Shown one piece after another: positions 1 to 45,658 of a stretch of DNA of 50,358 bases (its first letter is position 1; every line of letters begins with the position of its first letter). A program made the position numbers and the translations under genes. Under the pieces are notes generated by a model. That model ran no database searches, was not told the DNA's origin, and saw only the letters and a program-made list of their open reading frames with translations. This DNA is from Catajapyx aquilonaris (lineage: Eukaryota), in the NCBI GenBank assembly GCA_000934665.2, contig JYFJ02002815.1, forward strand, positions 1 through 50,358. The letters are read 5' to 3'.

Positions 1-3000
1 TAAAATCCCCTCTCCGGAATGGAACTTACTGGGAGGGAAAGTTATATATACACACACACAGGGTGAATCAGTCAACTTGCAAGCTGTTGCAATATATACA
101 CCCTCGGTGTCGTGTAAACAGTATCAGCAAAATAATTGTAGGCCATGAAAGTTGTGTTATGTCGTACATGTCATCACGATTCCGATCTGAACTGGCGCAA
201 CAAAATTTTATGGAACATCCTGTGGTATAGGAGTGACATACTACAGAGATCGACAAGTGTTTTTTTAATGAAATTGGAGTGCACATTTTTAGTGATCGAT
301 ATCTGAGTGCAGGGATTTTATTATGAAAATCGCCATACAATATCTCTAATAAAATTTTATCGAGTTTTATAACAGTGTAATTGACATGTTCCTGCTTAAA
401 TAATGATGGGTCTGGTACAGAGAGATTATTTAGTACATGGCACCCATCAGGAATGAAACGACAGGAAGGCGTGTCAACTGGGAAGCATTTTCATTCCAGT
501 CAGAAATCAAGAAAAATCTAGGACAGCTTCTGATTAGGTTGAGAAAACTTTCCCATTTTCATTTCTTTCTCTGCCGTGTCCCACATCTGATGCTGAAACG
601 AAAGTAATTTATTTCTTTATGGAACCGCTGAAATTGCAAATGTACGGATTTGTAGCGGGAGATTTTTTTTTGGCTATATTTTGTGCCAGTTTGATTTTGT
701 CATAAATGAAGCCATTAAAATTTTGCATTTTATATGTGACGACAGGTCGCGTGAAAATGCATTGTTTCTGGTAATTGTAATAATATATTACTGGGTATTA
801 TCACTCCTGTTATAAATATGTTTAAACGTCTATATGTATAGCCACAATTTAATGTGACGATTAATTATTTTCTGATATCCTGTAGCCTTGGCCCTCGCGT
901 CATTCGAATGCGAGCCTCCTGAAAATAATCATGAAAAGGAAAGGTACAAAACGCTAAGGTAAGCACATTTTTGAATGACGTAATGATATTTTAAAAATAG
1001 ATTTAACGACTTTTATGAGTGATTTTTTTTTCTTCCAATTCCAGATCTGAGATCCATTGAAGCGAGTGTCTTTGGCGGTTTGCGGCACTTGAAGTACTTG
1101 CTTGTAATTATTTTTTATTGTGGTCGAAAAGAGAGTGAAAAACTGTTGCAGTTAACCAGCTGTAGATACGCACAACCTTCCAACTGGTTCAGTGGACAAG
1201 ATATTTTCCTCCTCAACTCGACGACCATACTCGATCAACAAGGGTCCATTTTTTTAAAAACGTTGCAGATTTAAGAGAAAAAAAAAAACATGTTCTTACA
1301 ACAATGTAGCCATAAAAATTTATTATTTTTTTCCGTGTCCGTGTGATGGAACAAGATGTAAAAACACTTTTTATGATTTCGTACGTGCAAAAAAAAAAGA
1401 GTGTAAGTGTTCGTGGCGTGTTTGGTGACTCTGGTGCCTTGTGACAGTGGTTACTGTGCGTCCTAACGGCCAAAGTGTGTCATCGGGTCACGAATTTTTT
1501 CCAAACAAAAAAAAATTATTTAAAGAAATCTATCCTCCCGCATGCGAAAAAGATTGATTAGCGTTTTCCGTTTCGCCAAACTTGCTTTTTTTCGCAGGGT
1601 TTCAGTGTAAGGAGCGGAGAGATCTTGGTAGGGAAGGGTAAGGGGGGGAGGAAAAACATGCCAAATCTTCTCATGCAAATGGACTCTGCCCTCCTTTTTT
1701 CCGCGAAAAAAAAATCTGCACGTTGAATCCATTTGGCTCGACAAGCTCCATCCCCACCATTCAAGGCCCCAACTTTTCGTAAGCATGAAAAGTCTAGAGG
1801 GAAAAAAGCCTTAGCCCTCATGTTATTCTGGGCAACCCTGCTTACTAACGTGCGAAAAACACCATTGTGGAGATAAAAAAGTAGCAGATTTCTTTGCACG
1901 AAAAATGGCACCGATATTCCTCCTATTGTTTCTATTTTTTTATTGAGATATTCACAACATTCCCTCTCAATGCTGCTCTTGAAATATTTGAGTTTATTTT
2001 GTGTCAAAACATTTCAGCTACTTTACCCAGAGGTGTTACCTGGAGCTGGATGTTTCTCAGTTCGTTGTTTTTGTCCGACACTTTTGGGCCTTTTGACCAA
2101 AAGTCAGCAGTCTAGTCAATTTTTGCGTATTAATCGGGTCATCAAGGATTCTCTCCAGGTCAAGCAGGAGGCATATAGCCATAAATTACTAATTGCAGGA
2201 CAACCCCTCGCTATGAACAAATGAAAAAGTACTTAAAGTAGAAAGTAAGATAAGTCGATGGGTAATTACATTTAATTATGAGAGGGACTGGTGACCTATG
2301 ATGACCCGACTAACCTAGTAACTGATAACCATGGCAGGCAGAGTACCTCCCTTTTTTTTAAAGGTAGCTTTTTTGACATTAATTTTACTCAACTGTAGCG
2401 TAATTCAATTTACAACTGACTTTAAAATACGATCAAGTATGCTGCGAGCGAACACAGCTTTTTTTTTATTACGACGGGAATGAATGATCGTACGAAGACA
2501 ATCCTTTGTATAATGAGTGTAAGTTGGGCAACTTTTCAATTTCCCCGAGTCAGAATGGTTGTTTTTTTCTTTCATGAAAAAAGCCAAGACGGGTATAATT
2601 CCTGCACAAATTTATTCCCCTCTCTCATCATTTTTACCCCCCCTCGAAATCCATCAATAACACTCATAAATATTCGAGAGCCCAAGTTAGTCATTGACTA
2701 TTCATTGGTAACGTGTAAGTCCCGAGTGTGCGTATGATATGTATGATGTGTTTGTGCGGTTTTTTTTGTTTTTTTGTAATTCCTTTTGTGGTACAAAATG
2801 AAATCTCTCCCCCCAAACCCTTTCCTCAAAAAAAAAAAAAAAAAAAAAATCCACCCAAAACCCTATATTCCCTCCATTTTTTTCAGCCTCGATTATCCCC
2901 AGTGTAAATACAGTATTTCTCATATTTTCTTGCAAGTGTATATATTTGTGTGGAGATTATCTGTAGAGAACTGGAAGAAAAAGTAATTAAAACGGACTAC

Positions 3001-6000
3001 GAGTCGATAATTCTGAGTCATTTTTTTCCCATGTTTGTACCAAGTCGTAATGAGCAAGAAGTGTTATCCAGGCAGATTTTCCTGCTGAGTGTTGGAATGT
3101 GCCCAAATTATATCGGAAACTGGCCAACATGCCCTACAGGATGTTTTACAAACACGATGCCAAAATCACAACTCCAGCTGTGCACCATTACCTTTTACTA
3201 GGTCGAGGTCATAACAAATGCTGGATCAGTTTTAGGGGAGAAAATGCGCCCCCATTCATGACTCATACCAATCGCAGAAGTGGCATTGAAATAATTATGA
3301 TTCATTTGGCATGCAACTCTGGTGTCCTCCAAACACCTGTCTGTAGGTCACCATCTGCAACTTGCCAAAATTTGGGTCATCGTAACACCTTACTGCAAAC
3401 CGCACCTCAATCTTTTCAAACCCTATTTTTTATCCTTACATCTCGAATGAGGGTGGTGTATATCTGAACATGCACAAGTGTTCGTAAGAGCAGTGGGTTG
3501 GTAGATGTGGCGGGTTTTTTTTTTGTGGTGGCTGCTTTTTGTGTGCAGTTGCAGGTGTTGAGGCAGAGTGTGTGTTGGCAAAAATCCGATGCTGCCCAGT
3601 TATTATTTTATCTACGTGCTGTCGAGGTATGTACAGGCCAGTTCACTGCCCATGTGACATGTTCACATTGTGTCTTACTTTTAACCCCAGTTTAACCTTA
3701 TGAATTTGGTCTAAGAATGGCTCATGTCCAGTTTGAAACAGAGTCCTTTTGGGCCATTCAATTGTTACATTTACAAATATTTATTACATAGATAATAATT
3801 TTAAAAAATATCACACCCCCAGCAGGTTCGTATTACGAGGTTAAACTGGTTGCTGGAATAAACAATTTGTCGCCTCACCCTGTTGACTGGAACAGCACAC
3901 ACATTTTAGTAGCCCATTTGACAGGCAGCTTTGCCTCTCCAAAAAATTAATTACAGCGAGTTACGTCCATTTGGGGGGGNGGAGGTTCAGCTTTGGGGTA
4001 CTTGGGAGGCGTGAAAATCGGCAAATTATTATTTTTTTGTTATTGTGGTCCATGCGCCTCCCTGTTAATGGAGCTTACAAATGTTTGTGGTGAATCAATC
4101 CAATTGCGTGCAAATATTAGTTTCATTTTGAAACGCAACATTGGCCAATATGAGCTGGCCGTTTGTTTGCTCTGGGGACCGGCACAGTTGCGCTAATCAA
4201 GAGAGGAGGGGGATTGGTGGTGGGGGTGGGAAGGGTGTTATTTGCGCTAAAAAGCGGCCGTTTTGCAGACTACCCCTCCCACAGCACCCGGTTGTTGTTA
4301 CTGCCACGGCACAAAACCCACAATGCAGTGATACATCTGGCATCCAGAGCGTTTCAAAAGAATCGCTTTACATGAATGGGGCTAAAGGGCTGCATTATGC
4401 TGTGTACTGTCGTGGACAAAAGGTTTGAAGTTGAGGCTTTATGTCAGGCTTTCATTATGCTATGAATCATACACACCAGAGGATGTCACTTGGTTATAGG
4501 AATTAAACGTTGAAGTTTGTGTGAATGATTAAGTAACACCCTGTAAAAGGCTTTGGTTCCATGCATGCCAATTGAAGCTCTCAAGATGGATAGCGATCCA
4601 CAGGTGGGTCGCAAAGGTTGGGGTGCCTACCCACACAGCCCAAGCTCACATACCTCTGGCCTAAATGCAAATCATTAGCAATTATGAAAAGGCTAAAAGA
4701 GACTCATCCAGACTCTTGGCCATCCTATTGGTCAATATTACTAGCCAGGATTTACTACTTACTTAATTTCGGACTGAATAGTAATGATGTGTGCAATATG
4801 TACGTAGAATCAGAAAAGTTGAGTCACCCTCTAAAAAAAATCTCCCTATGTTCCCCAAATTCTTGCTTAATTGCTGACAGCAATGTTTCGAATTAAAGCT
4901 GCCGGACGAAGTTTTTTGTGACTAAGGCTAACCCCTCAGACAAAGCAGAAAGTGCTTCGAGATGACTATTGCGTATGAGAGAGGAATTTTTATCCTTTAC
5001 GGTCAATTTTCCACACCTGCGGTTACTCATAAGAGTGTACACCTGTTGCTTGGGACTATCATCAGCACACTACTGCTACAAAAATATATTAATTCAATAT
5101 ATGGTTGCTTAATTGTAATTAATTAAGCCAAAAAATGAATGAATTGCACATTTTTCCAAGTTGCTTTCAAACAAACACAATTTCCGAGCACTTCGATCGC
5201 ACCATGGTGTTATTAAAAAATGCACACCAAAAAACACTTGTGCATCTCTGTATACCTGCACGTACCTGAATGCTGATCTGAAAATGAACAAGATTAAACA
5301 CATGAAATGCAATTTACACTCTTGATATCGACCTACAAAATATACGTATCCGGGCCATACTGGTATATGCGCATAATTATCTCCCTGGACAGTATTTATT
5401 ACTCAAATTGAAAGCAATTACAGTGCTTTCTTCTATACGCAAAGTTACTGCAAAAACAGTAAGCATGACTTCGTCAGCTTTCAAGCAATGTAATGTTCTA
5501 TACAAAAAAAATCAACTATGTGCTGTTCATGCCTATACGTACACTCGTATACAACTGTCTAAAGCGTGTAAATAACTGGTGCTGTAATATTTCATGTCAT
5601 GCATCATTTTGGAAGTGACAGATGCCCGGGGTCATCTCACAACACTCTCTGAATCCACCCTCGCACATTGCATTATATTCGGATGACTTTTACGAACCCT
5701 TCTTCTCACCTTAACTGACCTTCGAAGCATCGATAACCATGAGGCACGATGAGTACTCCGGACATACCCGAGACACGTCGGGTGTATACGCACACGGAGA
5801 CATTATATGCCAAGTGAAGGCTATAATGAGACACGCGGGATATGATACCCAGGCGAGACATTGTATTCCATCGCAACTCATCGCGTGACCGCATGATGAG
5901 AGTTCAATGAAGTCTTCTGTCCATCGGTGGTCGTGCGGTACAGGGTGCGCCTACTCGGGACCCGGTCGAAGGTCATCCCAATGAGAAACCAATAGCACTA

Positions 6001-6277
6001 GTTTTGTCATCTCATAAAAGACAGACTCGCAATTCTGTGTTGCTTTAAGTATTAATTCATAAAATGACAATTATCACAATATTTCAAAATTGATTGCACT
6101 TCAAAGGGAGGTGCGGCAGCCAAAAACAGTTAACCTTGTGATATACCAAGAAAGCATGTATCATTCACTCTACATATTACGCTGGTTTACCATTATCTTG
6201 TGCGTAAGACATGATAAGATATGTTCAATCTCTTTGTGATGGATAATGTGCGTTGGCACCTTCCAAGTTGCTGAGTC

Positions 6278-9200
6278 ATGTCTTGGAGCAATGGCGACGA
6301 GGTGTTTGTCGGTGAGGGTCAGCTGGTGGTCACTCCGACCAAGAGCATCAAGAAGGGGGCCACCCATCAGCATCTCAACGCCCTCCGAGGTCAGATGGAC
6401 CAGAGTGACTGTATAGAAGGGTAGGCTTTGAGTATATTTAAAAGTCACTGAAATACTGACCTGGTCCAGCAGTGGTCAACTCTGTTAGAATCAAACGCAA
6501 TTACATGACAAAAAATTAATGAGAATGTTATGTAGTGGGCCAGAATCAGACCAAGTCCAGTTTCTTCAGTGTCGTGTAAATGTCCCAATTTTAACCTTGC
6601 TTTTCGCGTTTTGATCAGGGATGGTGATGCTTTGTTGAAGAAGGCCTGGCTCAAGATGCGTCGAGACAGTGAGTCGACGTCTTTGGCCACGTTTGAAGGT
6701 TTCCTGGGAGGGGTCCTGGAGGAGCTGAGGGAGGTTCGTTGGGAACAGGACAGCTTGCAAAAGGCAGTCCTGGCCAAGACCGAGGCTCAAGAAGAGCAGT
6801 TGTCCAGGCTTTTCCAAGAGGTAGAAACCACGTTCCAGGAAGAAAGGGAGAGGATACTTAGAGAGGTCGGTACATCTTAATGTTTCCCCAATCATTAAGT
6901 ACCTTGCAATTAATTAAGTGGAAACGGGTGTTGTAGGGTCCTACACGACCTATAGACGCAGATCAGCATAGTTGTTTTGAAACTACAGGTGCAACATGTG
7001 TTTTCAAATAAAAATTTTATACACTCAACAAGTAGCAGAACTGACAAACATATTTTTTTGAATTGCACGTGACATGCAAAATGTTGAAATAGTAAATGTT
7101 TTTATCTACAAAATAATTTAAGCAAAACGTGTGTGCGCAATCATAATCAGAATATCAAATGGCATGTACTGCCTTTCCCCTACAACAAAAAAAATGATAA
7201 TGTGCCTGGGCGGAAGAGTGTGGCGATAAGATAAGCTCAGGAATTCTGTTTAAGTGTTACTCGTGACTGGATGGTGTTGCAGGAACGCAGGCATGAGCGT
7301 GTCCTGCGACTGGAGGTGGAGAAGGAGTTGTCGCACAAGGATTCCCAGCTGCAGGACATACTTCAGATGCAGCAGGAACTGGCCGAGAACCTGAAGCAGC
7401 TGAACGCCACCGAGGCCAAGATTAAGGAGGAGAACCTGAAGCTGAGGAAAGAGAAGGAAGACCTGGAGCAAAAAGTGGAGATCCAGCAGTCTGAAGTGAG
7501 CAGCTTGCAAGCAGCCCTGCAGAGAATACACCATGACGCCAAAGGAGATAGAAGACAAAGGGCTCTAGAGGTCCTCAGAGCATCTGAAGGGGTTGCTCTA
7601 GAGAGGGAGAGTATGTGTTGACCTGATCGAAACAATAGCACTTGGACTTAACTCTTGTTTTTTGGGCAGGTCTGGTGAAGCAGCTAGGACTGCTAAGGGC
7701 CATCAATGCGCAGCTAATGGACGAGAAGGATGTGCAGAAGGAGATGATGGCACACAACTACCAGAGGAACTCGGGCAGCTTTTCTTCTATGAAGGATATG
7801 GAGGAAAGGAGGATCAGCCAAATGTCTTCGGCTTCAGATTATTGCAGCATGTCCAGGTAAATATAGCAGCTTTCTTTCAACCAATTCAGTTAGAGATGAG
7901 TAATGATCTTCCCACTTTTTATGGCCAGAATCAGGATTATTAACTCTACAATAATTAAAGGTTACTAGGCTTGATGATCATGCACAACCTTACTGCTGGT
8001 ATACAGTACTATATGCTATAACTTACAATATATTGCCCTAAATTACTTTTTATGCATTGAGTGCATATCCAGCATTGCAACGATGTAGTGTAATGTGTAT
8101 GGTACATTTTTACAGCTGTATCTAGTATTACTCGTATTTGAAGGTTTAAAGAAAACTATTTTTAAACTCATTACTACAGAATGAGAATTTGATAATTTTT
8201 TGAAAACTTGAAATGTTGAAATTATGGATATGGTGTGGATCTATAAGTGGCAATAATTTAATTGCAGCCAAGCTCAAGGACTAGCAAGCCCAGCCAACGA
8301 GGTTCAACACCATTACAGCACTGATGACGAAGAAGTGATTACCAGCTGCACCTCTCATGACACCGCAGTCAAAACGGCTGTAATTGCTACTAACAATCAT
8401 TCAAGCAGCTTACTTGAAGAGCTCAAGACCAGTGCCAGTGAATGCGATAATGCCAAGGGTTGCACGGATGAGGTCTCTCTCTCTGGCTGCTCTGCACCAC
8501 TGCTGGTACAGAAGGGGGTGTTTCCTATCACGAGTCAGTCAGAAGAAGGGTCAGCCAGCTCCTCTGATGCAGACATCAGTGACGTTAACACACCTGATGT
8601 GTATGACACTGCTGGACTTAGGTACACTAAACTAACCTAGTGTTGTTACAGATTTTAATCAAAATATTGCAATATTATAAGCTACTCATTTTGCAGAAAT
8701 CTGCAGGCAATATCAGTAATACCGGTACTCTTCCAGAAAAGTGCAAATGGAATTATGCATGAAGTAGTAATCCAAAGGTGGTGTCTTAAACAGTTACTTT
8801 TGCACAGTTACTGCTAATTGTTATCAAATATATTAGCTGCTAATATAATGGCAAACTTAATCATCCATTCCAGATCTGACTTGTGAACTCCCAAATAGTT
8901 CTAATAACCTAATATTACAGATAACCAATGAGAGTAGCTGTTTTAAAATAAGCATAATCAGACGAGTATTTTGTATCACCCTGTCTATTCATAGACACTT
9001 ATTGCTCTGTATTTTTCTGTAATTTCAATTTCACTAATTTTTGGGAAGGATTTTTATTGAATTTTCCTTCTCATTATGAAGTGGTTTTATGAGCTTGCGT
9101 TTATTTAGCAAGCAGGCCATTATACCCATTATGGGCATTAGAGAAGAATGGCACATTATTAGCACTGCGGTCTATTGTATTATTTTTAGTGTGCTGTGAA

Positions 9201-10563
9201 ATGTGTCAACACTTTGTCCAAAGGTGACCATGCAAATTGCATAACCCAATTTTTCAGGGTAAGAAGACGGACCTCCATCCGAAGGGCATCCATGGTATCA
9301 CCAACTATGTCAATGACAAGAGCCCATGGTCGCAACAGTCTGTCCCGAGATTCGATTCCGTGTCCCCAACGAGTATTCAAGATTGTGGTGATTGGTGACT
9401 CTAGTGTTGGGAAAAGCTCGTTTATCCACAGGTTTTGCCAGGGACACTTCCAACCCTCCTTCACGGCTACGTTAGGTGTTGACTTCCACATGAAGACTGT
9501 TATGGTTGGAGACAGGACAGTGTGTCTACAGATATGGGACACTGCCGGACAGGAAAGGTACCACAGCATCACAGCACAGTACTACAGGAAAGCAGATGGT
9601 GTCCTTGTTGTTTATGATGTCACATCAGAAGAGTCATTTAAGCACATCAGGCACTGGATATCTTGTGTTAAGGTTAGGATAATATGTTGTACAGTACTTA
9701 TATGCGATCATATTCTAGTTAAAATTGATCAGTGTAGAACTGTAGAGGAGGTAAGTATTCCACAAAAATATAGTTTTACATAAATGACATGTATATGCAA
9801 GACTGTATTCACACTGTATTGTTATTTCTTGTTATTTGAAAAATTGAAAAGAAAATGTTGGTTAACTTTAGCAAAACTTAACCTTATTGAAAGATGATCC
9901 ATAATTCATTATTATGAAACTTCCATAGTTCAATGAGTGTTGTACTCAACGGTGTCTTTCCATAATTTATTGATGATAGTGACTTTATTTGACAGGACGG
10001 TGCAGGAGACAGCGTGTTGGTACTGGTTGTTGGTAATAAGGCCGATCAATCTGGAGCTCGGGTAGTGTCTGAACTAGAGGCTAGCAAGGTAGCTGAGGTA
10101 TGTGGTAGCCAAATATTAACATGGCCTTTTTACAAATTTGCACATGTGGCAAAAATTTTAGGCGCAATCAAATATTTAATCTGGGTGTTCAAAATGGCAA
10201 TGGCATAAAGTCGCAACATTAATTAGCCTACTGCCAGTTGCATCATTGCAGAATAAAAGCAAATATAGAACATACCAGTGCATGAAGTCAACATGAATAT
10301 CTGCAGTCACAACAGCTTTTATGAATATATTGCCCTTTTATTATGCCTGTTGCCTGTCATATACTTGCATGATTATTATTATGCCATTTTTCTTGTAGCA
10401 CGAAGGAGTACTTTTTATGGAAGCAAGTGCAAAAACTGGCAAATGTGTGAACGAGGCCTTCCAAATAGTGGCGTCACTTCTGAGGGAAAGGCAAGACGTG
10501 GACATGGCCAAGGCATCAGTCCTTTCTGGAGTCCATCCAAGGCCCAAAAAGAGTTGCTGCTGA
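6278..10563 (+). CDS. Large Rab GTPase of the RASEF(Rab45)/CRACR2A(Rab46)/Rab44 class: coiled-coil + C-terminal Rab domain, about 646 aa, 8 coding exons, no EF-hand found
   Basis: Phase-consistent GT-AG exons 6278-6420, 6619-6865, 7283-7610, 7670-7856, 8268-8621, 9258-9672, 9996-10097, 10399-10563 (1941 nt). Rab motifs: G1 GDSSVGKS, G2 TLGVDF, G3 WDTAGQE, G4 GNKAD, G5 EASAK, and a KKSCC* prenylation tail. Coiled-coil segments 'WLKMRRDSE..FEGFLGGVLEEL..LFQEVE' and 'ERESLVKQLGLLRAINAQLMDEKD' resemble the RASEF/CRACR2A family. Confidence 0.88.
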
Positions 10564-10822
10564 TCTGGACAACTGCATGTGTCAAATGTACAAAGGGTAA
10601 CCCAAAGTTTAGACAATCTAGTTTTTATTGAAAAGTCTGTATAACATAAGAGAACACATTTTTTCACATTTGACCCAAATGCAACAATAATAATGCAATT
10701 TTTTGTCAATAGTAAACATAGTGTTCTAGTACAATATTTTAACAAATGCAACAAAAGACAAACACATATGTTAGCATTTTCCATATAACCTGCTAAAAAA
10801 TTTAATATTTTTCAAACTTAAA

Positions 10823-10828
10823 AATAAA
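10823..10828 (+). other. Candidate polyadenylation signal (AATAAA) of the Rab-like gene
   Basis: AATAAA about 260 nt after the TGA at 10561-10563. The region is AT-rich, so this is not unique. Confidence 0.4.
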
Positions 10829-13800
10829 ACAATCGCACAAATATTTATGGATTTGTATTGCATGAAACCCTTACTTTAAGATCCATTCACAGAACCACTA
10901 CTTTTTGCACACTCTAGAAGTCTAGAATCATAATTTAATTGTTACAATTGCTTTGATTATAATGTAATTAATACAAATAGGTTCTAAAGCTCTCTTTAAA
11001 AAAAGCTGTCGCATTAAATGAGAGTTTAATTGTGCAAAAAGTAAATAATAATTATACTACATGAAAGCTGTGACATACCATTCAACATTTGAATAAGCTT
11101 AACCATTGTAATCAGTGCAATATGAATTCAAACTGTTCAACTAAACCAGTAAAATATTACCTACATGTCATTCACACTGTGCAGTTAAGGTTTAACCACA
11201 CTTTCAACATACACACACACACAAAGAGCTAACCTCGCTATTTACAATTCACCGGGGTTACATCTCTGCCAGCAGGTTAACTGCTGGATTACTTAAACAT
11301 AACATGATATATGAAACAGGATAACAAGCTCTACTACACTACAGTCTACATGGATGAGATTACTTGATTGAGGTATGGTCATATGTTGAAACCTATTCAG
11401 ATAGAAAGGTTGTAAATCATCGGTAATTACACAGGTGGAAATATGCATAATGCGTGGCAGTAGGCCTACATACTTTTCTGATTTGTGGCTGCTCTCATGT
11501 GAATCTCATCTTGCATCGGGCCATCTTATTTGTGATCTTGTTAAACTGGAGTGACTGCAAAAGCAATATAAATAAGTTCACTGATCTGTACTTTAAAATA
11601 TTGCAGGTCATGCTATTCAAATAGACAAATCCTGGTGACTGGCTGATTTATAATGTGAACAGAAAGGTTGCCAATATTTCAGAATATTGCGATGTTCACC
11701 ACTACTGCCAACAGTAAATACAACATGCCTTTAGCCAACATACCTTTAGAGTCTGTGGTTGCAATCTAGCCTGGTCCATTTTCTCTGGTCTGCCCCGGAT
11801 TCTTCTGGAGCGGTTTTCGGAAGAGGACCTTCCGGATTCGAGTCCCAAGTGCAAAGTGTCTGGAAACCGCGACCACTTCCGCGCCCCTCCCCGAAAAATC
11901 TCTCAAACCCAACCCCTCCACCAGCATGAAATTCTCCCAAAGTATTTTCTCTCTGAAAAGGAAGGCCCAACCTTGACCTGCCAAGGCTTTCACAGCACAG
12001 GGGGACTCCGACGGGGCATTGCGTTACACCAGAAGAGAAAACAGAAGTCCTCCGAGAGCATTCAACTCACTGAAGGCCAAGATTTTGACCAATCCCGTTG
12101 CAAGGGCATACCAGATATACGGTTTTATCGGGACTCCTTTGAATCACTGCTGCACTAACCTTGGGTGTCACACACACACACACACTCGTCATATTACATA
12201 TCTTTTAATAAAATATCTGCAGAGTGTGAAGTGACAGTATGAATTATTTCGTAATGAATAGTTCGTGCAATTGATTTTCATAACCGTTATCACTACTGCT
12301 AACTTGTGATGTCATTTGGACCATTACAAAAATTGGAGCAACGGCGTAATGTTTGTTGGTGTCGGTTCATAAGGCGTCCTGGGAAAATAGTTTAACGGGA
12401 TCTCTGTTTTGTGACCAAGGTCAGACAGGCCTCGAGGGTATGTTGACCCCATCCACCGACAAGTTTTGTCTCTGGGTATAGGAAGTCCTTCACAAATCGG
12501 GGGCTGGGTTTTGGGGGGTTAGAAACTTGCTGGGAAGGACAAAAACAGCTGGGTTCCGACCCGAGATTAGTACACTCAAATAACGTAATCTTATCGGGGC
12601 CCAGCGTCATAACAAATTATCTGGAGCACTTGAAGCTCACTTCTTGGAAAAACAGTTGTTGACACAATCATTTCCTGTGCACCAGACATAATTATCCGGC
12701 TCGTGAGTAATAAAACCTCTGCTAAAATTATCCGAACATATTCTTGTTCTTATGCATGCAACAGTGTGTCATTTTGCTGTAAAATATTGTCGTTTCCAGA
12801 TGCATATTTCTAGGGTTTCGTTGCATTTTGTGGTCAGCAGGTCACCATATGGCATTTTCCGCATGTTGTACTGCCCAGAAATTTGGGAAGAAAAACCCGA
12901 ATCTTGAAAGCTGTCTTTTGTGTGACGCAACCGAAACCGTCTGGGGGACCGACCCTTTTGCACAAAGGTCTTTTCAAAGTTTCCAAAGCGCTCGGGGAAG
13001 GGGAAGGAAACTTGAAAAATATCTCCAGGGCAAAATCTTCGTGACCATTTGGTAGTCCACCGACTTGAATTGGTCACAAAGAAGACATCGCCACCCTTGT
13101 CAAAAAAAAGGGTGGTAGCCAAGCCCCCCATAAAACCGGTGAGGTCAACCTTGACTGGACGCTGGGCCCCCCTAGAGTATATACAGGTGGAACAGGTAAA
13201 CACGCGTTGCAGGTCAAATGGAGCAAATGACAACAACAAGTGTCGAGAAAAGTAACTCTTTACGCCCCCCCGAGGGGTAGTTGTAAAAGGTGACAACAAT
13301 ACAAGGAGGGTTTGATTTTTGAAAGGGTTGATTCTGGGGCTACAAGCCGGGCTTTTCTCTGGTGGTAATTTGGACGGTAAATATTTACCATGCAACATGT
13401 CAAGATGGTTTTTCGGTTATTACTATACCTCAGCTGATGGAATATTGTGGCTGACAGGTAGGAAACATTCCGAACCGGAATATTTTATCGTATATGCATG
13501 GCAATGTCATTGATAGGTTGTGTGGGCCAGGTATTGCTGCAAAAGAGCTGATGGGTTCACTTAATAATCGCATTTAGTTGTAGGAGAAAGTTGGGATAAT
13601 AAAGCATGAACACAAACGATATTAATATTTAATAAAATTTAAAAGAAAATAGTAAAAATAGCTATACAACCAACGCAACTATAAAATATGCTATAGTTTA
13701 AGGCACAATATATTATTTCAGGTTTATACTTATCAGGACGCCACTTACCATATCAGTTATGCGGGCAAGATTAGAACCCAATTAATACCGATTAATGCTA

Positions 13801-14061
13801 TAAATTTTTACCGTGGGGACGGACTTAGGACCTTCATTTTACCACTGATTGTCTTACCTGGCTTGTCGCTTGATGGCCAATCTGCCAATGCTTGCAAATA
13901 ATATTATATACTGTTTGTGAAAACTTTCCTGCGAAGCTACCTCGCTTTGTCATACGTTTGATCGACATTGTTAGCCACATGTTGTATACATACCCTACAT
14001 GATACATTATTTGTTATGCTACTGCCTCATATGTGGCTGCCAGGAGATGGACATAGTCATG

Positions 14062-17000
14062 TCATATCAGGTCGCTAAAATCTGGAACTAAACATTTGAG
14101 CAATTAGTGTGCTACTTACACAGATGGAATTACCAGTGCAAAGAGCATAATATTATTCTCTCTATGCATATGAGCATTTCAGTTAGTCTCACTCACTTTC
14201 TTCGATGGGCAGCACAGTGTCGTCGATAGGTAAGTGTTGCAGCTCTTCAGATTGCTGTTCCTGATGGAGCTGGTCCGACATGGGTAAATTTTTGCATATG
14301 GTCAATAAATTCTCCGTGTTTATGGGAGTTTGGGTCTCCTCCATAAACTGGTCGTACAAGGGAATATTGAGATAGTTGTGTTCCATTGCTTCCTGACATT
14401 GCTGGAGGGTCACGCCTTGATTTGAGGTGGCAGCACCGAGATTTTCAAGGTTCAAGTTCACGGTATTTGCACCTGTAATCATGCAGAGGAAAGTATGACA
14501 AAACTTGTACAGTATATATGTACCGTACTTATTTTACGCTTACCAACTGGTGCCGTAATGTGTTCGCTGCTTTCGGATGTTGCCGTGTAAGGAAGCCCAG
14601 GCCCAAGGAAAATAGTGGGTGCCACACGCGAAGGTCCAGGGGCAGAATCAAATGAGCCAGTGATCTGAGGTTGTGACAAGACATTCTGGAGGTTTTGCCA
14701 GTGATATAAGCCTCTGGTCGCAGTACGCATTGGACGCTTGCGAGACACTGGATCAATAGTCATATTATGCAAGGATAATTATAATCAAGTACATCCAACT
14801 TATTTATGACACCATAATTATGTTGTGAAGTACTTACGTTCATCAGGTAAGTATCTGAAAGGCCTTCCTTCACTCCTTTCTCCGTCGCTCGGCCGATACA
14901 ATTCCATTAACACCATTTTCTCCTCAGTCAGGTTTTGGTCATGATAGGGTGGTGTTCTGGAAATTAGGGAGGTTTTAAAGTAGTGAAAAGGGTGTTGCAG
15001 TTGATATCTCAATAGAGAATAGCCTTGGTGGCCTAGAAATTGCTTAATTTGTCCACGCAAATACGACTTCACATGACATGACGGAAAAAACATTAAAAAA
15101 CTAAATAATTTGGCTAATGAAGCACCTGGTCTTGTAGATCATTGATTTACTGTAGAGATGATTACATATTTTCAGTGGGCCTCGCCCCGTAGGCCTCTAC
15201 GGATATTCGAGAAAATATTAATGTAAGTGTCAACAACTTTTCACAAAGGATCTCTGCCAGGATTGATTTTGCAATGACCCACGAAAATAGTCTACAATGT
15301 TTCAGCTATATTATAGGGCTAATTCTAATACAGTAATTATAATTGGTTTTACCTATATACCTGCTGATAATAGGGAAACTATTCAATGAGATTTCAGCTG
15401 CAATTGACTTCCCTCAGCAGCAAATATTCTACAAAAAATTACCATTTGCATGACATTTATCTTATATTTTTAAAATCCCAAAACTTTCGAATTTTAAATT
15501 TAGACCAGGTCTTTCACTGTGCCAGGTATATACCTGAAGACAATGGCTGCCTGCCTGTGCACTCCCAACGTCATGATTCCTTCTGCTCTCCATACTTCGG
15601 TTCCATCAATTACTTCATAAAATCTCACCTGAATGTCCTCTGGAAAAGAATTTAGCCAAGTCAAACAACTGCACTATGGAATTAACATTAACTTGAGAAG
15701 TCACAATAATTGAACTAACTCTGGATGACTTTTTCTACTAGAATGCACATCTCCTCATCACCAATGCACTTTCCGCATGTTTTGCTTAGGTAGGTAATGT
15801 TGAGCTCCTCTGTAAAATCATTAGCTCTAGGTAAAATTGTTAAAAGTTTCGGGGTTTAGAGAAACATTTCATATGCAGTATATAATATGTTTAACTAAAT
15901 TGTGCTATAGAGAGAAACACTCACTCGAATTGAATACAGCACTGGATATGACTGGCTCGCACAGCTCAACCCCTTCCTCTGAAAATGCCTGGAACTTGAG
16001 GTGGACACAATGTTTCACATCAGGCTTCGTCTTGCCTTCGTCAGCTGCTGGCTTCTTTGCTTTACTGGCTTTCTTTCCAGAACACTGTTGCTTCTTCCCT
16101 GGAAGCTGTTTCTTAGCGTCATCCTTTGGTTGAACTTCTATTATGACACATATCCACTGGAAGACGGCCGTGTAATTGTTGGATTCTTTCACCAGCTTCT
16201 CTAAGGGGTGCCCGTCTTCTTTAGGTGTTGTGTCAAGTTGGTGATGGTGAGGTTGGCCATCGACAGTGCACAGACTGACGCGAAGGATGGCAGTGTCTCT
16301 GTAGTGGTTGAGCTGTAATATCTAAACGCATTAGGGGAGAGTACATCTCGTGGCATATGTGAAGTGTATGGGCGAAAGGGCACATGACTGTGATCTCAAC
16401 TTATTTCATATTCATAAAAGTGTAGGTTTATTCTACATATTGGCCATTGAACTAAGAAGTTCACTGTGGCGGCCAGCAAGTAGGCCTACTATAGTAAAGC
16501 AAAAGATTATTGCCCTGATATCACTTGAAATAATCACATCTCCGCGGGGCGCCAGGAAGTGTGATTTTGCAAGCGAAGTGGCGGACAGAGACACCGTATC
16601 TTGATGTTTATAAGTCCATATATGACATTATAATTGTAATCATTACACTGGTCAGGAAAACTAATTTCCAAATCCAACGATAACCCGCCCGTAAAGTAGA
16701 CTATAGTGAGGATAGAGTGAACACGGAAAATCGGAAGTAGCGGGTCACCGGAAGTTGATCATGACACCTATTTATAGGTCACGCTTAATCCGAATATGAA
16801 ACCCGTTTGTCGCTATCACTTCCGGTTTAGGCCCTGATACCTGTCCACAGACGGACGGACAGACAGAGAATTCTATGACACTTTTTTTCGATGGTGAGAA
16901 AAAGTCTAAAATCGTAAAAATGAACCTGGGACAGTCATCAAAACAATAATGTATACAGGCCAGGTGCGATTTGTAAAAAGTTTCAAATGACGTCACGTTT

Positions 17001-17562
17001 GTTGTTATTGTGACTTCCTTTGTGATGGAAACAATGGTGACGTCATTTAGATTATATATTTTTTCAACATCGTATAAGCGGCCCGCCCTCACTTCGATCT
17101 TACGTCATCGTATTGTTTACAAATATATTCCTAATCAACAAAAATCTGCAAAGCGCACCCCTGGAACCTCACACACTTTTCAAAGTTTCCATAGAGATGC
17201 CCTCACACAACAATAGGAGTAAACAGTGTCAACAAAAAAATAACAATGCTTTACTCTTATTGTTGTGTGAGGGCAAATCCGTGGGAACATGAAAAGTGTG
17301 AGGTTCCAAGGGGTACGTTCGGAAGATTTCTAGGAGTTAATGAACAAAACGATGGCCTAAGGTCTAAGTAAGGGCGGGCTGACTTTTTAAAATACTGTAC
17401 TGTACCTACCCTAACAGTCGGGTGCTTGACCTTACGACCCTTCTTCGGCCCATCTGCCAGAAGGTATCCGTGTGTACCTTTGACCAGTTCAGACTCATAC
17501 CTGAACCTATGATATTTCCTAGGCTGCTCCAGGATCTCGAGGTGAACTTCTGAAGTGTCCAT
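14062..17562 (-). CDS. Relish: Relish-type NF-kB transcription factor (Rel homology domain + IPT dimerisation domain + NLS + acidic C-terminus), about 451 aa, no ankyrin repeats
   Basis: Phase-consistent exons (minus) 17562-17410, 16312-15925, 15809-15720, 15639-15534, 14956-14838, 14747-14544, 14472-14197, 14081-14062 (1356 nt). Motifs: LEILEQP-RFRYESE-GTHG (Relish has RFRYKSEMHGTHG), PHHHQL, LKFQAF..CEPVISSAVFN, ELNITYLSKTCG..DEEMCILVEKV, DIQVRFYE..VW..VHRQAAIVFRTPPY, ELYRPSDGERS..PFRYLP, then the NLS RKRP. The last short exon is the least certain. Orthologue versus paralogue of Relish is unresolved. Confidence 0.88.
16680..16900. mobile_element. Possible DINE-1/HINE-like (Helentron-related) non-autonomous element fragment in the Relish intron
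   Basis: Contains the (GACG/GACA)n run cagacggacggacagacag next to aatccgaatatgaaaaccc..acttccgg blocks. Resemblance only. Confidence 0.35.
17076..17386. repeat. Long imperfect inverted repeat (fold-back MITE-like), arms about 150 bp, in the first coding intron of the Relish-like gene
   Basis: ccgccctcactt..ctggaacctcacacacttttca..gccctcacacaacaataggagtaaa pairs with tttactcttattgttgtgtgagggc..tgaaaagtgtgaggttccaa..aagtaagggcggg. Confidence 0.75.
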
Positions 17563-18553
17563 TTGCGACACTGGAATCAAAACGGAACAATAATATTATA
17601 TCATTATATCGGACGTCACGCGCCAGGTTGACGCCTCTCACTTCACTCTAGTGCAAAGCAATAAGTCTTCTGCACATCCTGATCGTGTAATCACAGTCAT
17701 CCTGTATCAATATGATATACTGCAAATCCTAAGATTGCAGTGCTCATTATCAGCATCTCTTTCATTGCTGCAATAACATAAAACAGCAGGAAGCGAATAA
17801 CGATGATAACAACTTGTGGAAATGTAAATACAAGATAAGGTATATTTTACAAGTTTTGACATTGTTAGACGCGTCTATGATGATTGTGTAAGTAACACTA
17901 CGGGTGTACTTTAATAGGAACGCCCAGCCCATGTGAGGACCCTGCACCATCATCATCCAGCCCCCATACAATAATTATTACAATCCAATATAGCAAATAC
18001 AATATCAATGGCAAAATCCAACCCCTCCTCAGGCGTTTAATTGTCATAAAGGATTATTTTGTAAGCAGTTCTTTGCCTCAATATGTTAACTGCTTAAAAA
18101 TAAACAGCTTTGTGCAAATTGCTAACCACTAGGTTCAATTAAATTATTGGAACATTTTATACTGTTCGGTTCCATTCAGTGGCGTCACACTTCGAGTGCC
18201 AATAACATAATTAACCGGTTTAGCAACGCAATTTATAAAAGCAGTTTCAACATGCGCAAATTGAACTTACCGGCACAGAGCATTTAATACGTTCTTGAAA
18301 AATCTGCAAGCGGCAATCCTGTGACGTCACCAGCAATCGTGCATCTGAAGGACAAGGCCGGGCGAGGCTGTAAGATCCCTTCTAATTAAGTAGGCCTACC
18401 TGCACTCTGATGATGATGATGATGACGACGACGATTAAAAACATTAAAGTAACTAATGATATCATTTCTGCATTACTAAGCTTGAAAGTGACGTCATTGC
18501 CAACATTTTAAATCATTATTCTTAGTGTAAATTTTAATGGGAATAATACTCAC

Positions 18554-18620: not shown

Positions 18621-18800
18621 ATACCAGGGGAAGAACCGTGTGTCCAGCCCTTTGATTGGCCTACTAGGTGTGTCGGGGAATTCCCGTGAACAAAAATAGA
18701 CGTCAGCAGACATGTCACGTGACCTGTGATATCAAGCTGGTTCATATCCTTCCCGCCACTGATTTCAGCGCCACTTGAAATGAAACTGGTGCTGCCATCT
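18620..18800. promoter_or_regulatory. Probable bidirectional promoter between the Relish-like gene and the zinc-finger gene
   Basis: CpG-containing segment with ATTGG/CCAAT (about 18655), the kB site GGGGAATTCCC (18675-18685), CRE-like GACGTCA (about 18700) and the palindromic E-box GTCACGTGAC (18714-18723). It is flanked by outward-facing splice donors at 18554 (-) and 18899/19023 (+). Confidence 0.6.
18675..18685. promoter_or_regulatory. NF-kB (kB) binding site GGGGAATTCCC
   Basis: Exact match to the GGGRNWYYCC consensus, with the palindromic core GGGAATTCCC typical of p50/Relish-class homodimer sites. Confidence 0.65.
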
Positions 18801-22790: not shown

Positions 22791-23468
22791 TATATTTGAT
22801 GGTTGCTCGACCATCTAGTAAATTTTTAATATTTATATTATTTTAAATACGGATGTTGCGCCTCGGGTGTTTCACCGCGGGACGTCATAAAAGTGTAAAG
22901 CCCAAAGTTTTTTTTTTTCACAATTTTTAACTAAGCACTAGTAGGAGTATCCATGGCCAAAATTTCAAATTTTTGCGTGGCCCCCACCTTTGAGATATTT
23001 GACTTTGAAATCAGCAAATTTCGAACTTTTTCTAATTTTGGACCGAAAAATCGGCCAGAAGGGCTTGCAAACCCGGATTTATTTCACCAAGGCTGGATAC
23101 CCTTCCTGTCAGAGTCCTTGGAAAAAAATATTCCACCCTGGGATTTCAAGCCCTTTCGGTTTTACAGGCCTTTGAAATCTGTTTGGATAGACCTGATTCT
23201 TTCAAAACAACAGAAAAAAAAGTCAAAAAAAAATGCAGATCAGAGTAATCAGGAGTACAGTGTATTTCCACATGGGAATATCCTCCGTATCACAGTCAGT
23301 TTCATACGTAACTTTATGCACAATTTATGCTCGCTTGTAAGGTGCATGGAATGGGGCCTGGTCTCCATTCTGATTGGGGGTTGGAATGATGGAATCACAC
23401 TGGACTGGTTTCGCTTTTTCAGGGTGGTGCACAGTTGCAGAACCGAAAGCAGGTCCCCCTTCCCAACA

Positions 23469-26400
23469 ATGGACATGCTGTCTTGGGGGGTGTTCCCCTG
23501 CCCCTGCTGCCCAGGGAAAACTTTCAAGAGGAGGCTTGATCTGTTAGCGCACAACACCACCCATTCAAAGTGGGACAGTGTCAAGGTGGAGGTCAAGGAG
23601 AAGCCAGAAGAAGAGCCAGAGGTCACAGTCAGGTTCCACAAGGTTGGTTTTCCGGAATAAATTCAGCTCGTTTTTTTTATTGACTGCACCTGATAATAAT
23701 GGTGGTAGCCAAGTCATCACTTTTTCAATTTATACGCAAAGGTTTCTGCCATGCATATGCCTTTAATGCACACTACAGTATACTGATTAATGAAACTATT
23801 CAAAAAATGCGAAAATAGCTCGCCTGCAAATGAGTCTGGACCTAAAAATCTGTAATTCTCTTCTGTCGTCTCCATCTTGCCAAATACACCAGAAAAGTAA
23901 TGATTTTGTCCTTTTCGGCAAGTACAAAGGAGCATTACTGCATGACATCTTGGCCGTTTCTGTCTCACTGCCAACTGCTTGACGCAGGTGTAGGCTAGGG
24001 TGTAGTGTGCTGATGCATGCCTGGGAACCTGGGAAGGTAATGAATATGACTGGACGTTTTTAAAATCCGCATTTTTTGGTCAGCTATGATGCAATGAGTT
24101 GAAAATGGGCACTTGACGGGGTGAGATTGTGGCATTGTTTTTCCCCATTATTTCACTGATTTTTATGCATGACGGTGATGGGAAACGTTTCCTTGAAGAA
24201 GATCGGTCAGAAGCTTCGGCAGAAACCATGGTCAACATTTCTGTTACGATTAAAAAGTGGAAAATTGGATGGTGCCAAAGTGACCAGAAGAGGAACACTG
24301 CATCTAGCACCACTAGCCGAGGCGACTAGAGAGCGTATCGAATCTGACCGAACCGAAGAATAAGATCAACTTGGTTGGAGGAAGGGAAAAATTCATGTAA
24401 TTGCATTTTTTCATAATTTTGAGCCAATGACTCGGACTGATCATGTGTGTGACTTACAATGTGTTTTATCAAGATGAAGGAGTTCAGGGGTGTCCTTGAA
24501 GTGCCTGTAAACATCATTGTCATACCTTTCTTTTTAACAATATTAAAAAACAATTTTTTCTTTGTATTAAAAAATATATATATATATATATTTAAAATAT
24601 GTCGAGGATGTTCCTTTTTACAGGCAGACTGGAGAGAATGGAAAACTGCAAATCTCAAAAAATGTGGCACAATCTCACCCCATTTGATGGTAGTTCTGGT
24701 GAGCCTATGAAGGTGATTAGTGATGGACTGCTTCAAATGTGTCTTGGAGAACAAAGGTGGTTTCTTCCCCATCATGAGGTGATTAGTCAATAAAAATGCT
24801 AAGTTATGAATCAAGAGATGTTTACAGGCACTTCAAGGACACCTGTGTACTCCTTCATCTTGATAAAACACCATTGTTTATAGCCACACGCATAATCTGT
24901 CTGAGTCAATGGCTCATAATATTATGAAAAAATGCAATTACATTAATTTTTCCCTTTCTCCAACCAGTTTGATTTTCATGCACGTAAGCCATGTGATCTT
25001 TATTTTTTAGTTCACGTACTTCAGGTCAATGAAGTTCGACGCTCGTTTTCGTTTCCAAGGCGCTAGCTGTAGTAGGCTACTCCTTGCCCGTTCGCCTTGC
25101 TCACATCCAAGTTTCTACTACTTTTTTCATTGCAGAAATGTTAGCCCTGATTTCTGCCAAAGCTTCGGCCCGATTTTCACGTAACCTTTCCTTATCACTG
25201 TGACTCTTGAAAATCAGTGAAATAATATGGGGAAACTGGGAAAAACAGTGGCACAATCTCACCTCATCAACTGTACTTTTCTTTACTAATTACGCCATGT
25301 TTCAAAAGAATTGTTTCTTGTTTTTTTTTCGCATATTGAAGATGCTCATTTTTACAGGCAGACTGGTGGGAATGTGCCCATGATACGTTTCCCATTCATT
25401 TCAAGCATTTAAATAGGCTGGCATAATCTCACCCCACGTGATGGGATGAGATTTGGAGATTGTGAAACGGAAAAGAATTGATATCTCCCCTTGACAGCAT
25501 TTGCACTTGTAATCTGGTGCTCATAAGGTGTATCAATATAATTTTTTAAAATACCATAAGGATATGCTGAGGAAGGGAGGTTCGAGAATTGCATGGTGCT
25601 TACCAGCTGATGGTGGCATATGTAATCAGATACACCCTAACAGGGTTACTGGTTCTTTTCATCACATTTTAAATGACCGTGGTCCTATGCCAACAAGATG
25701 GCCTTTACCAATTTAGGATAGTAGGAAATTTCGCAGTTTTGCAACGGAAAATTAACATAATTATTCCGTTGTCTTCACTTATTACGCTGAAGAACTGAAC
25801 CTGTGAGCAAGACAATTAATTTTATCAGAGCTCAAGGACTTCAATTAATCTGAATATCTGGAAAAGTTGAGTATCACTGCTTTAAAGTATGATCGTGTGA
25901 GGTGCTTCCAAACCAAACTTCATTTATGGGAAGCACAAATGCAAAAAACAACAACAACAACAACAACAACAATTGTACTGACTGTAATTGCACATGTGAG
26001 ATGTCACTGTGCACAAAGACTTGAACCAAATTTAGGTGCTTTCTGCATAAAAATTATTGCAATGTTGATAACTGAATTTGAAAAGAGATTCCGTGATTTC
26101 AAATCGTATGAGAAAGATATTCAGCTGTTTCCTTAGCTCCATTCTTATGTAATGTCAGTCTGACAAGTAATAAAGTTCAGATGGAGTTGATTGTAATGCA
26201 AGTGTAACACTGCTCTCAGGAACAAGTACTTGGTAACAAGTACAAAGCTGTTGGATTTTCAGAATTTTACACATGTTTGCCTGACAAAGTCCCTAATATG
26301 AAGCAATTTGCTGTAAGGGGCCTTGCTATGTGTGGTAGCATGCGCTTGTGTGAGCAATAAATTATTTCCGATGATGAATGTGAACAGGACCACTAGAAAA

Positions 26401-29400: not shown

Positions 29401-30309
29401 AGCAAAAAGTTTTGTCATGCTTCTGCTGTGGGACGCCACATGCTAATCCACAGAGGGGAGAAGCCATTTAGCTGTGATGTTTGCAAAAGAAAGTTTACTG
29501 AGAAACGCACTCTAAAAGATCACAAGATGATTCATGAAGGAGTGAAGCCATACACTTGCCTAATTTGCAACAAAAAGTTTAGTCAAGCTTCTGCTGTGGG
29601 ACGCCACATGCTAATCCACAGAGGGGAGAAGCCATTTAGCTGTGATGTTTGCAAAAGAAAGTTTACTCAGAAAGGCACTCTAAAACATCACCAGATGATT
29701 CATGAAGGAGTGAAGCCATACAGTTGCCTAATCTGCAAAAAAAAGTTTCGAGGGTCTGGAGGTTTTAATAGCCATATGAGGGTTCACACAGGGGAGAAGC
29801 CATACAGTTGCCTAATTTGTGAGAGAAAATTTACTGAGTCAGGACAATTGAACAAACATATGAAGGTTCACACTGGAGAAAAGCCCTTCTGTTGCCAATT
29901 TTGCAAGAAAAAATTTGCTGAGGCAGGAGGTTTGAATAGGCATATGCGGATTCACACAGGAGAAAAACCATTCAGTTGCCAAATTTGCAGCAAAAAGTTT
30001 GGTCAGTCAACATTATTGAATATTCATATGAGGGTTCACACAGGGGAAAAGCCATTCAGGTGCATAATTTGCAAGAGGATGTTTAGGACCACACAATGTC
30101 TGTTGGTACACATGAGAAGTCACACAGGCGAGACGCTACATGGTTGCCAAGTTTGTAAGAAAAGATTTATTCGTTTGGGACACTTACGAAGGCATATGAG
30201 AATTCACACTGGCGAGAAACCCTACTTTTGCGAGATTTGCATGGAAAGGTTCAGACACTCAGGGAGTTTGAAAAGGCATCATATTAGAAAACACAAAGGA
30301 GAAAAGTGA
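23469..30309 (+). CDS. C2H2 zinc-finger protein, about 455 aa: two isolated N-terminal fingers plus a tandem array of 11 intact and 1 degenerate fingers
   Basis: Phase-0 exons 23469-23642 (FPCPCCPGKTFKRRLDLLAHNTTH, VKVEVKEKP), 27573-27695 (YCDHCNGAFATKRNLVRHMLKKH) and 29239-30309 (CxxC..F..L..HxxxH fingers with TGEKP-type linkers). The final exon is certain; the start codon and upstream exon linkage are inferred. Confidence 0.85.
24112..25272. mobile_element. About 1.15 kb fold-back element (long inverted arms) in the zinc-finger gene intron
   Basis: 24366-24530 is the reverse complement of 24817-24975, and 24112-24270 of 25104-25270. The motif ggcacaatctcacccc recurs. Confidence 0.7.
25790..26470 (+). 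pseudogene. Decayed hAT transposase fragment (SPIN/GTF2IRD2-like)
   Basis: Frame-shifted remnants: KTINFIRAQGL, YDRVRCFQTKLHLWEAQM, LITEFEKRFRDF..DIQLF, QMELI, LAMCGSMRLCEQ..MMNVNRT..LSNERL (hAT C-terminal dimerisation-like). A further hAT-like fragment LAYFADMFEELN lies at about 26850. Confidence 0.7.
27995..28676 (-). mobile_element. Tc1/mariner deletion derivative with a nested Harbinger-like MITE
   Basis: TA|CAGGGTGGTCGGAAAGTAACT.. TIRs of about 105 bp ..AGTTACTTTCCGACCACCCTG|TA. Transposase C-terminal remnant FLAWSKERVCRTKLQNLDQLERAFEMCW. Confidence 0.8.
28325..28504. mobile_element. Second copy of the palindromic Harbinger-like MITE
   Basis: Same AGGCCGGTATCCAC termini and GAGGAGCCAACTGCGCATGCCCAGATACGAG arms as 20273-20463. 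Confidence 0.8.
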
Positions 30310-45400: not shown

Positions 45401-45658
45401 AAGTTGCACAGCCACAGTCGTCTGACAGAGCACTGCATGTCGGCCATAGCCTCCAGGTGCTTGGAGCTGACACATGTGACTTTCTCCATTTGTTCAGGTT
45501 TTACCTACACTGGCTTTTACAAAGTGATCACTCAATGCAAAAAATTGAAGACTGTCAGAGTCCAAGAGTGCTGTAACATCTTGATTGATCCACATTGCCA
45601 TAAGAAGGTGAAAGAGCTCAATCCAAATGTTGTGTTAACAACTACAGAACAGTGTTAA
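42419..45658 (+). CDS. F-box/leucine-rich repeat protein (FBXL-like), copy 2, about 427 aa
   Basis: Exons 42419-42553, 42702-43063, 44872-45658 (1284 nt). Same exon structure as copy 1 and an intact frame. Confidence 0.88.
43305..43870 (+). repeat. Dispersed repeat family, also at 22033-23200 (interrupted by the mariner) and truncated at 34567-34620
   Basis: Shared start g(g/a)gt(c/t)attccatgtgaaat..ggttgct(c/g)ga(c/t)catctagt, and shared internal block gtcagagt(c/t)cttgg..aaaaaa..ttcaag..ttttacaggc(c/a)tttgaaa. Confidence 0.55.
44132..44346. mobile_element. Palindromic MITE with TA TSD, specific to the F-box copy 2 intron
   Basis: Arms of about 88 bp, AGG(G/T)GAAGTGGG(G/T)TAAGTGCACACACGGGGTAAGTGCATACACGG. 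The empty site ttatta-tgtcag is present in copy 1 (about 34690). Confidence 0.8.

Follow-up and report, generated by a model that had tools for sequence, protein, structure and literature searches.

Relish-type NF-kB proteins that lack the IkB-like ankyrin half have been described from several Acari. Stand-alone ankyrin-less Relish genes are reported for Ixodes ricinus, I. scapularis and Tetranychus urticae (PMC11649134) and for Varroa destructor and Galendromus occidentalis (PMC12027997), and three ankyrin-less chelicerate Relish models were flagged in 2015 (PMC4833078). Not all ticks are without the repeats, since the Relish of Dermacentor variabilis is reported to carry five of them (PMC11682715), and according to one of these accounts the location, function and activation of ankyrin-less Relish are not understood (PMC11649134). 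Here we analysed 50,358 nucleotides of the Catajapyx aquilonaris genome (assembly GCA_000934665.2, contig JYFJ02002815.1, positions 1 to 50,358 of the forward strand; the whole of this stretch is called the window below), in which an earlier note had picked out an NF-kB gene without ankyrin repeats. The novelty that the earlier note implied for an ankyrin-less Relish does not stand beside the Acari genes already described in these sources (PMC11649134, PMC12027997, PMC4833078). The window nevertheless holds an intact Rel/NF-kB gene on its minus strand (17562..14062; the Rel gene below), and we hold, with moderate confidence, that its predicted product is a self-contained Rel/NF-kB activator and a counterpart of the ankyrin-less Relish of ticks and mites.

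The Rel gene was built by hand and checked by script as eight exons with an intact frame, running from an ATG at 17562-17560 to a TGA at 14064-14062, with all exons on the minus strand. The joined exons come to 1356 nt, equal to 451 codons plus the TGA with no internal stop, and GT donors and AG acceptors flank all introns, which are 62-1097 nt long. Exon 1 (17410..17562), which ends at a GT donor, holds the start codon and the first 51 amino acids, including loop L1 with RFRYESE and GTHG, whilst exon 2 (15925..16312) encodes residues 52-180, the remainder of the N-terminal domain of the Rel homology domain (RHD) together with a Lys-rich insert. The linker and the beginning of the IPT dimerisation domain, with LVEKV, are found in exon 3 (15720..15809), the middle part of this domain in exon 4 (15534..15639) and its end in exon 5 (14838..14956), which reads TPPY ... 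ELYRPSDGERS ... FRYLPDE. Exon 6 (14544..14747) carries the basic cluster RKRPMR and then a disordered, S/P/T-rich linker, and exon 7 (14197..14472) an acidic L/N/E/Q-rich tail, a candidate activation domain. Exon 8 (14062..14081) is a predicted terminal micro-exon of 20 nt that would supply NFSDLI and the stop codon. The 115-nt intron before it has a strong donor (AAA/gtgagt at 14197) and an acceptor (ttccag at 14082) that resembles the other acceptors of the gene; without this last splice the frame stops two codons on, at ...PIEESE. The gene coordinates of the earlier note proved exact; of the two splice points that it had named, 14197 marks where exon 7 ends and 14544 where exon 6 does. On this model, the Rel locus is a real, intact gene, predicted to encode a 451-residue transcription factor of the Rel/NF-kB family.

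All Pfam, Protein Data Bank (PDB) and homologue tests were run exon by exon and never on the spliced protein, single exons serving as queries because the tools took only unaltered window sequence. Pfam matched all five of the RHD exons, in the correct order. Exon 1 corresponded to positions 1-42 of the RHD_DNA_bind profile (27.1 bits, against a cut-off of 27) and exon 2 to positions 43-168 of 169 (32.3 bits), whilst exons 3-5 corresponded to positions 2-26, 29-63 and 65-102 of the 103 in RHD_dimer (16, 20.5 and 37.5 bits), giving 74 bits for the dimerisation domain when summed over these three exons. The complete RHD plus IPT that had been claimed for the gene was confirmed by this coverage (RHD_DNA_bind 1-168/169, RHD_dimer 2-102/103), and every motif quoted in support of it was recovered from the model, namely RFRYESE (residues 19-25), GTHG (29-32), HQL (75-77), LVEKV (204-208), ELYRPSDGERS (264-274) and FSDLI (447-451).

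Solved NF-kB chains were the best PDB matches for exons 1, 3, 4 and 5. Exon 1 scored highest with p52/p100 (14.0 bits, E 0.6), exon 3 with RelB (14.4 bits; p65 12.4 bits) and exon 5 with p65 (28.4 bits), followed by RelB (26.8), p50 (25.6), c-Rel (22.5), p52 (17.4) and NFAT5 (14.7 bits). Exon 4 matched 27 chains at E<=10, of which 25 were p50/p105 (at most 20.1 bits) or p100/p52 (at most 15 bits) and the remaining two were unrelated designed proteins; no Rel-class chain was found for this exon at E<=10. Judged by its sequence, the protein is a member of the Rel/NF-kB family whose dimerisation domain is well conserved and whose N-terminal domain has diverged strongly. A Lys-rich insert lies within the latter, at about residues 110-150 (window 15990-16110, minus strand), with 29% K and a net charge of +6. 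When exon 2 alone was modelled with AlphaFold2, the predicted local distance difference test score (pLDDT) was below 50 over most of the insert; the model had a mean pLDDT of 47 and was not used. Identity as an NFAT protein was also considered and ruled out, as NFAT chains scored lower in the PDB (12.9 bits for NFATc1 with exon 1, 14.7 bits with exon 5) than NF-kB chains, the RHD begins at residue 8 and a basic cluster follows the Rel homology region (RHR). In NFAT proteins the RHR is central, a long regulatory region precedes it and no nuclear localisation signal (NLS) follows it.

Features of the Rel/NF-kB superfamily found in the protein were the RHD, an IPT domain directly after it, the residues of loop L1 and a basic cluster at the end of the RHR, and this RHR probably belongs with class I (Relish/NF-kB). 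The loop shows two class I features, a His (H31) and a Ser at the Cys position (S24), and GTHG, HQL, LVEKV and EL.RPSD.ERS are words that we take to be typical of Relish. Three further class I features were looked for, and neither ankyrin repeats nor a glycine-rich region nor a death domain was found. When exon 1 was aligned with p52, R19, R21, Y22, E25 and H31 stood opposite Arg, Arg, Tyr, Glu and His, S24 stood opposite Cys, and two residues were inserted between the Glu and the His. The base-specific contacts described for p50 are made by His64, Arg56, Arg54 and Glu60 of loop L1 together with Lys241, with His64 reading the outer G (PMC10527052); the loop residues of the Catajapyx protein match the L1 contacts and the DNA-reading residues are therefore kept. 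In Tenebrio Relish, the DNA-binding motif is printed as RFRFRYKS, with a Ser following the Lys (PMC7060202). We therefore place the gene in the Rel/NF-kB family without assigning it to a class, and its product probably functions much as ankyrin-less Relish does in Acari.

Searches for the missing inhibitory half extended over the whole window. Downstream of the Rel gene's sixth exon, in 1..14533, the minus strand has 109 stop-to-stop frames with 38 or more residues. At E<=0.1 not one of these matched a family of ankyrin or death domains, and nine of them gave one weak, unrelated Pfam match each, below the curated cut-offs. Ankyrin and death families were likewise without a Pfam match in 131 plus-strand frames and in 95 minus-strand frames above 17765, each of at least 60 residues. 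A pattern for the ankyrin core had no match in any of the six frames of the entire window; whole frames within the introns of the Rel gene were covered by this pattern and lay outside the Pfam scan. The observation that neither the open reading frame nor the sequence downstream of it encodes ankyrin repeats was thus borne out for all 50 kb. As the gene ends before a convergent gene on the opposite strand, the missing ankyrin half is not a fault of the gene model within the window.

The basic cluster RKRPMR (residues 288-293) begins three residues past the end of the RHD_dimer match, at the usual position of an NLS, and would be expected to act as one. It is followed by a tail of 158 residues that is at first S/P/T-rich (exon 6 part: S 12%, P 12%, T 10%; net charge +3) and then acidic and L/N/E/Q-rich (exons 7-8: L 14%, N 11%, E 11%, Q 11%; net charge -15), composition counts that agree with the S/T/P-rich and then Q/E-rich tail previously reported. 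Neither of the two tail exons searched (6 and 7) matched a Pfam family above cut-off, exon 7 giving two sub-threshold matches only, and there was no glycine-rich region, with at most 13% G in any 30-residue window of the tail. Rel-class activation domains are characterized as acidic and rich in P, S, Q or hydrophobic residues (PMC8763368). The make-up of the tail fits this description, and it could be an activation domain; the suggestion that the protein carries its own transactivation tail is upheld to the extent that an acidic, Q/N/L-rich tail is present that could activate transcription.

The likening of the C-terminal FSDLI to the activation motif of RelA and p53 did not withstand a comparison with shuffled tails. 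A Phi-x-x-Phi-Phi word fell within the last eight residues of 8.7% of these and somewhere in 98.5% of them, two further such words are present in the tail itself (LQNVL at 305 and, in exon 7, YDQFM at 393), and FSDLI relies on the predicted micro-exon. A p53/RelA-type motif was rejected as functional evidence because its chance rate is too high.

Taken as a self-contained activator of the kind known from ticks and mites, the protein would form a dimer through its IPT domain, read kappaB-like sites with the loop that keeps Arg19, Arg21, Tyr22, Glu25 and His31, and activate transcription by means of its own acidic tail. Since the ankyrin half is absent, neither cleavage by Dredd nor processing by the proteasome could activate the protein, and there would be no control by cleavage of a built-in inhibitor. 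Control would consequently have to lie in how the gene is transcribed, in a separate IkB/Cactus-type protein that masks the NLS, or in phosphorylation.

A putative core promoter of the Rel gene occupies 17572..17618 on the minus strand, comprising TGACGTC (17618-17612), which resembles a cAMP response element (CRE-like), TATAAT at 17608-17603 and again at 17600-17595, and CAGT, whose A at 17572 lies 28 nt past the second TATAAT box and 10 nt ahead of the ATG. This array resembles a core promoter made up of a TATA box and an initiator, and would leave only a very short leader; these elements suggest that it marks the start of transcription and that the gene has no coding exon upstream of it. 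On the other side, the first poly(A)-signal-like hexamer, a putative ATTAAA on the minus strand (13628..13633), is found 428 nt past the stop codon. A perfect palindromic kappaB site (GGGGAATTCCC) was also observed at 18675-18685, 1.1 kb upstream of the ATG, which could reflect autoregulation or chance. The pattern GGGRNNYYCC had 15 matches in the window compared with 7.0 +/- 3.4 expected, a number reached in 2 of 100 shuffles.

The convergent gene, separated from the Rel stop codon by approximately 3.8 kb, is RASEF/EFCAB4B-like and occupies 6590-10252 on the plus strand. Its frames (approximately 6590-6865, 7262-7618, 7669-7731, 9361-9780 and 9993-10205) comprise coiled-coil frames and a C-terminal Rab domain; coding ends at 10205, and an AATAAA stands at 10252. 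It matched the Ras family with 135.5 bits and the PDB protein 'RAS and EF-hand domain containing' with 127.8 bits, and tblastn returned 120 hits. Two trees were built from 38 and 24 of these hits, leaving out isoforms, multi-Rab fusions and short nematode forms, and in both the end branch of the Catajapyx row was long (1.96 against a median of 0.27 among 39 rows, and 2.87 against 0.47 among 25 rows). The row grouped with a barnacle inside the arthropod set (Shimodaira-Hasegawa-like approximate likelihood ratio test, SH-aLRT, 95 and 97) and, with the barnacle removed, with six chelicerates (SH-aLRT 97). When tblastn scores were added up, by contrast, gastropods, a nemertean and mussels came first, with 41-45% identity, and a spiralian placement was not rejected by the approximately unbiased (AU) test (p 0.222). 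Taken by itself, this neighbour would point to a protostome host, perhaps a fast-evolving arthropod. Because this neighbour sits on an equally long branch, the divergence of the Rel gene may be lineage-wide rather than the mark of a spare copy, and the paralogue proposed in the earlier note is not supported in the form given there.

Further features were observed elsewhere in the window. A single frame of 372 residues at 29191-30306 (plus strand) encodes C2H2 zinc fingers (zf-H2C2_2, 249 bits over 11 stretches) and is probably a single-exon zinc-finger gene. F-box-like domains were detected on the plus strand at 33892-34326 and 42612-43064 (41.9 and 45.2 bits), the second being followed by a 293-residue frame (44777-45655, plus strand) with a leucine-rich-repeat match of 20.7 bits, below the cut-off; together these frames look like tandem F-box/leucine-rich-repeat genes. 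Long frames without a Pfam family were present at 37313-38173 (plus strand, 287 residues), 22935-23657 (plus strand, 241 residues) and 12772-13416 (minus strand, 215 residues), the last of which, possibly a repeat element, lies within the 3.8 kb that separate the Rel gene from its convergent neighbour. Rfam had no match in the window.

Several results weigh against the interpretation of the Rel gene product as a self-contained, Relish-type activator. In the N-terminal domain, the Pfam matches of exons 1-2 sum to just 59 bits, and for exon 2 no Rel-family PDB chain was found at E<=10. Searches with exon 2 for longer proteins gave 98 candidates, none of them at E<=0.001, and HMMER found nothing at E<=0.001 among 1.84 billion representatives. 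Exon 5 plus one codon had no homologue candidate in the protein collection, and none of 225 pattern matches in metagenome contigs was confirmed. The weakness of the N-terminal match could mean that DNA binding is itself weakened. In addition, the per-exon PDB scores are split, with exon 4 nearest p50/p105, exon 5 p65/RelB, exon 3 RelB and exon 1 p52; the bit scores differ little, every reference chain is vertebrate, and the classes are not separated by these scores. The last six residues of the protein (NFSDLI) depend solely on the predicted 20-nt exon. A caution is also provided by Daphnia, where a Relish model without the ankyrin part is reported as a gene-model mistake (PMC4833078).

The blank searches can be read further. 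Animal proteins are present in the collection, so that the blanks mean no close relative there rather than missing animals, and the ESM Atlas gave a best score of 0.75 for exon 2, from unrelated families and without a lead. Strong divergence of Relish between arthropods fits the lack of matches to exon 2, the best amino-acid identity of Dermacentor Relish to three other aligned arthropod Relish proteins being given as 23.3% (PMC11682715).

Alternatively, the gene could belong, in divergent form, to the Rel/Dorsal class (class II), whose members are without ankyrin repeats and end in an activation domain. It would then have lost nothing, would be restrained by a Cactus-type IkB and would owe its Relish-like residues to convergence or ancestry. 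The layout that defines Rel proteins, in which an RHD and an NLS are followed by an acidic, P/S/Q-rich tail and a Gly-rich region is missing (PMC8763368), is also that of the Catajapyx protein and counts against a Relish assignment, and the preferences of exon 5 for p65 (28.4 bits) and RelB (26.8 bits) and of exon 3 for RelB (14.4 bits) point the same way. However, the loop has a Ser for the Cys, a His of the p50/p52 type and an insertion, with the Ser common to Tenebrio Relish, and the NF-kB matches of exon 4 at E<=10 are to p50/p105 and p100/p52 only, although these too are small bit gaps against vertebrate references. We regard class II membership as unlikely. The low N-terminal scores (27.1 and 32.3 bits) and the failure of exon 2 to match either a Rel chain in the PDB or any of the 1.84 billion representatives would also suit a duplicate that has fallen silent or is decaying, a young pseudogene with a drifting DNA-binding domain and a frame that is still open for lack of time. 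This is highly improbable, given that all eight exons are open, the GT-AG boundaries are intact, the base-contacting loop residues are kept and the dimerisation domain retains 74 bits in sum; moreover, the RASEF-like neighbour is equally long-branched and Relish is very divergent between arthropods in general.

The absence of the ankyrin half admits another explanation, in which the 451-residue product is a short isoform or a truncated model and the ankyrin exons lie outside the window or on an unassembled piece. Short as well as long Relish forms arise by alternative splicing in Aedes, Anopheles and shrimps (PMC7060202), and the annotation error in Daphnia is a precedent for an ankyrin part being lost from a model (PMC4833078). 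Against this, the searches revealed no sequence for ankyrin repeats or a death domain in the 14 kb downstream on the same strand, nor elsewhere in the window, the convergent gene fills approximately 6.6-10.25 kb, and a splice that skipped another gene and spanned more than 14 kb would be unlike this gene, with its introns of 62-1097 nt. We consider this explanation very unlikely. A bolder proposal, which strikes us as quite unlikely, is that of a lineage-specific extra NF-kB gene combining a class-I, Relish/p50-like and His-bearing DNA-reading head, Cys-less and hence redox-insensitive, with an acidic tail in the style of class II. Such a protein would be self-sufficient, requiring neither cleavage nor a Rel partner, and would evolve fast under pathogen pressure, with a canonical, ankyrin-bearing Relish encoded elsewhere; if so, the kappaB palindrome at 18675-18685 would give positive feedback. 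The interpretation that we prefer remains that of a self-contained activator corresponding to the ankyrin-less Relish of ticks and mites.

Compared with known systems, the Rel gene product shares with canonical Relish, p105 and p100 the loop His of p50, the Ser of Tenebrio Relish at the Cys position and an exon 4 for which p50/p105 and p100/p52 provide the only solved NF-kB matches, but differs from them in that the glycine-rich region, the ankyrin repeats and the death domain are all missing. With Rel, Dorsal, Dif and RelA it has in common the order of RHD, NLS and an acidic, activation-type tail in which S, P, Q and hydrophobic residues abound, the lack of ankyrin repeats, and exons 3 and 5 that are nearest to RelB and p65, whereas the Ser for Cys, the His and the two-residue insertion in its loop, and the lack of a Rel-class chain for exon 4, set it apart. 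The short Relish isoforms of mosquitoes and shrimps likewise consist of an RHD and IPT without the IkB-like half (PMC7060202), but these are splice variants of an ankyrin-encoding gene, and here no ankyrin exon is found within 14 kb downstream and another gene lies in between.

The closest likeness is to the ankyrin-less Relish genes of Acari, which are also stand-alone genes for an RHD, an IPT, an NLS and a short tail without ankyrin repeats, and which are said to group with Relish by their RHD, yet are without the C-terminal inhibitor (PMC11649134, PMC12027997). The likeness is one of description, and the Lys-rich insert and the acidic, Q/N/L-rich tail of the Catajapyx protein are absent from those descriptions as far as the cited accounts go. 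The value of the locus is that of a further instance in the record of how NF-kB family members have repeatedly lost the IkB half, and not that of a new kind of system. Its clearly acidic tail offers a simple idea, namely that the protein may activate on its own, and, set beside the tick and mite genes, the locus provides a clean genomic case for how Relish works without its inhibitory half in the immunity of these animals.

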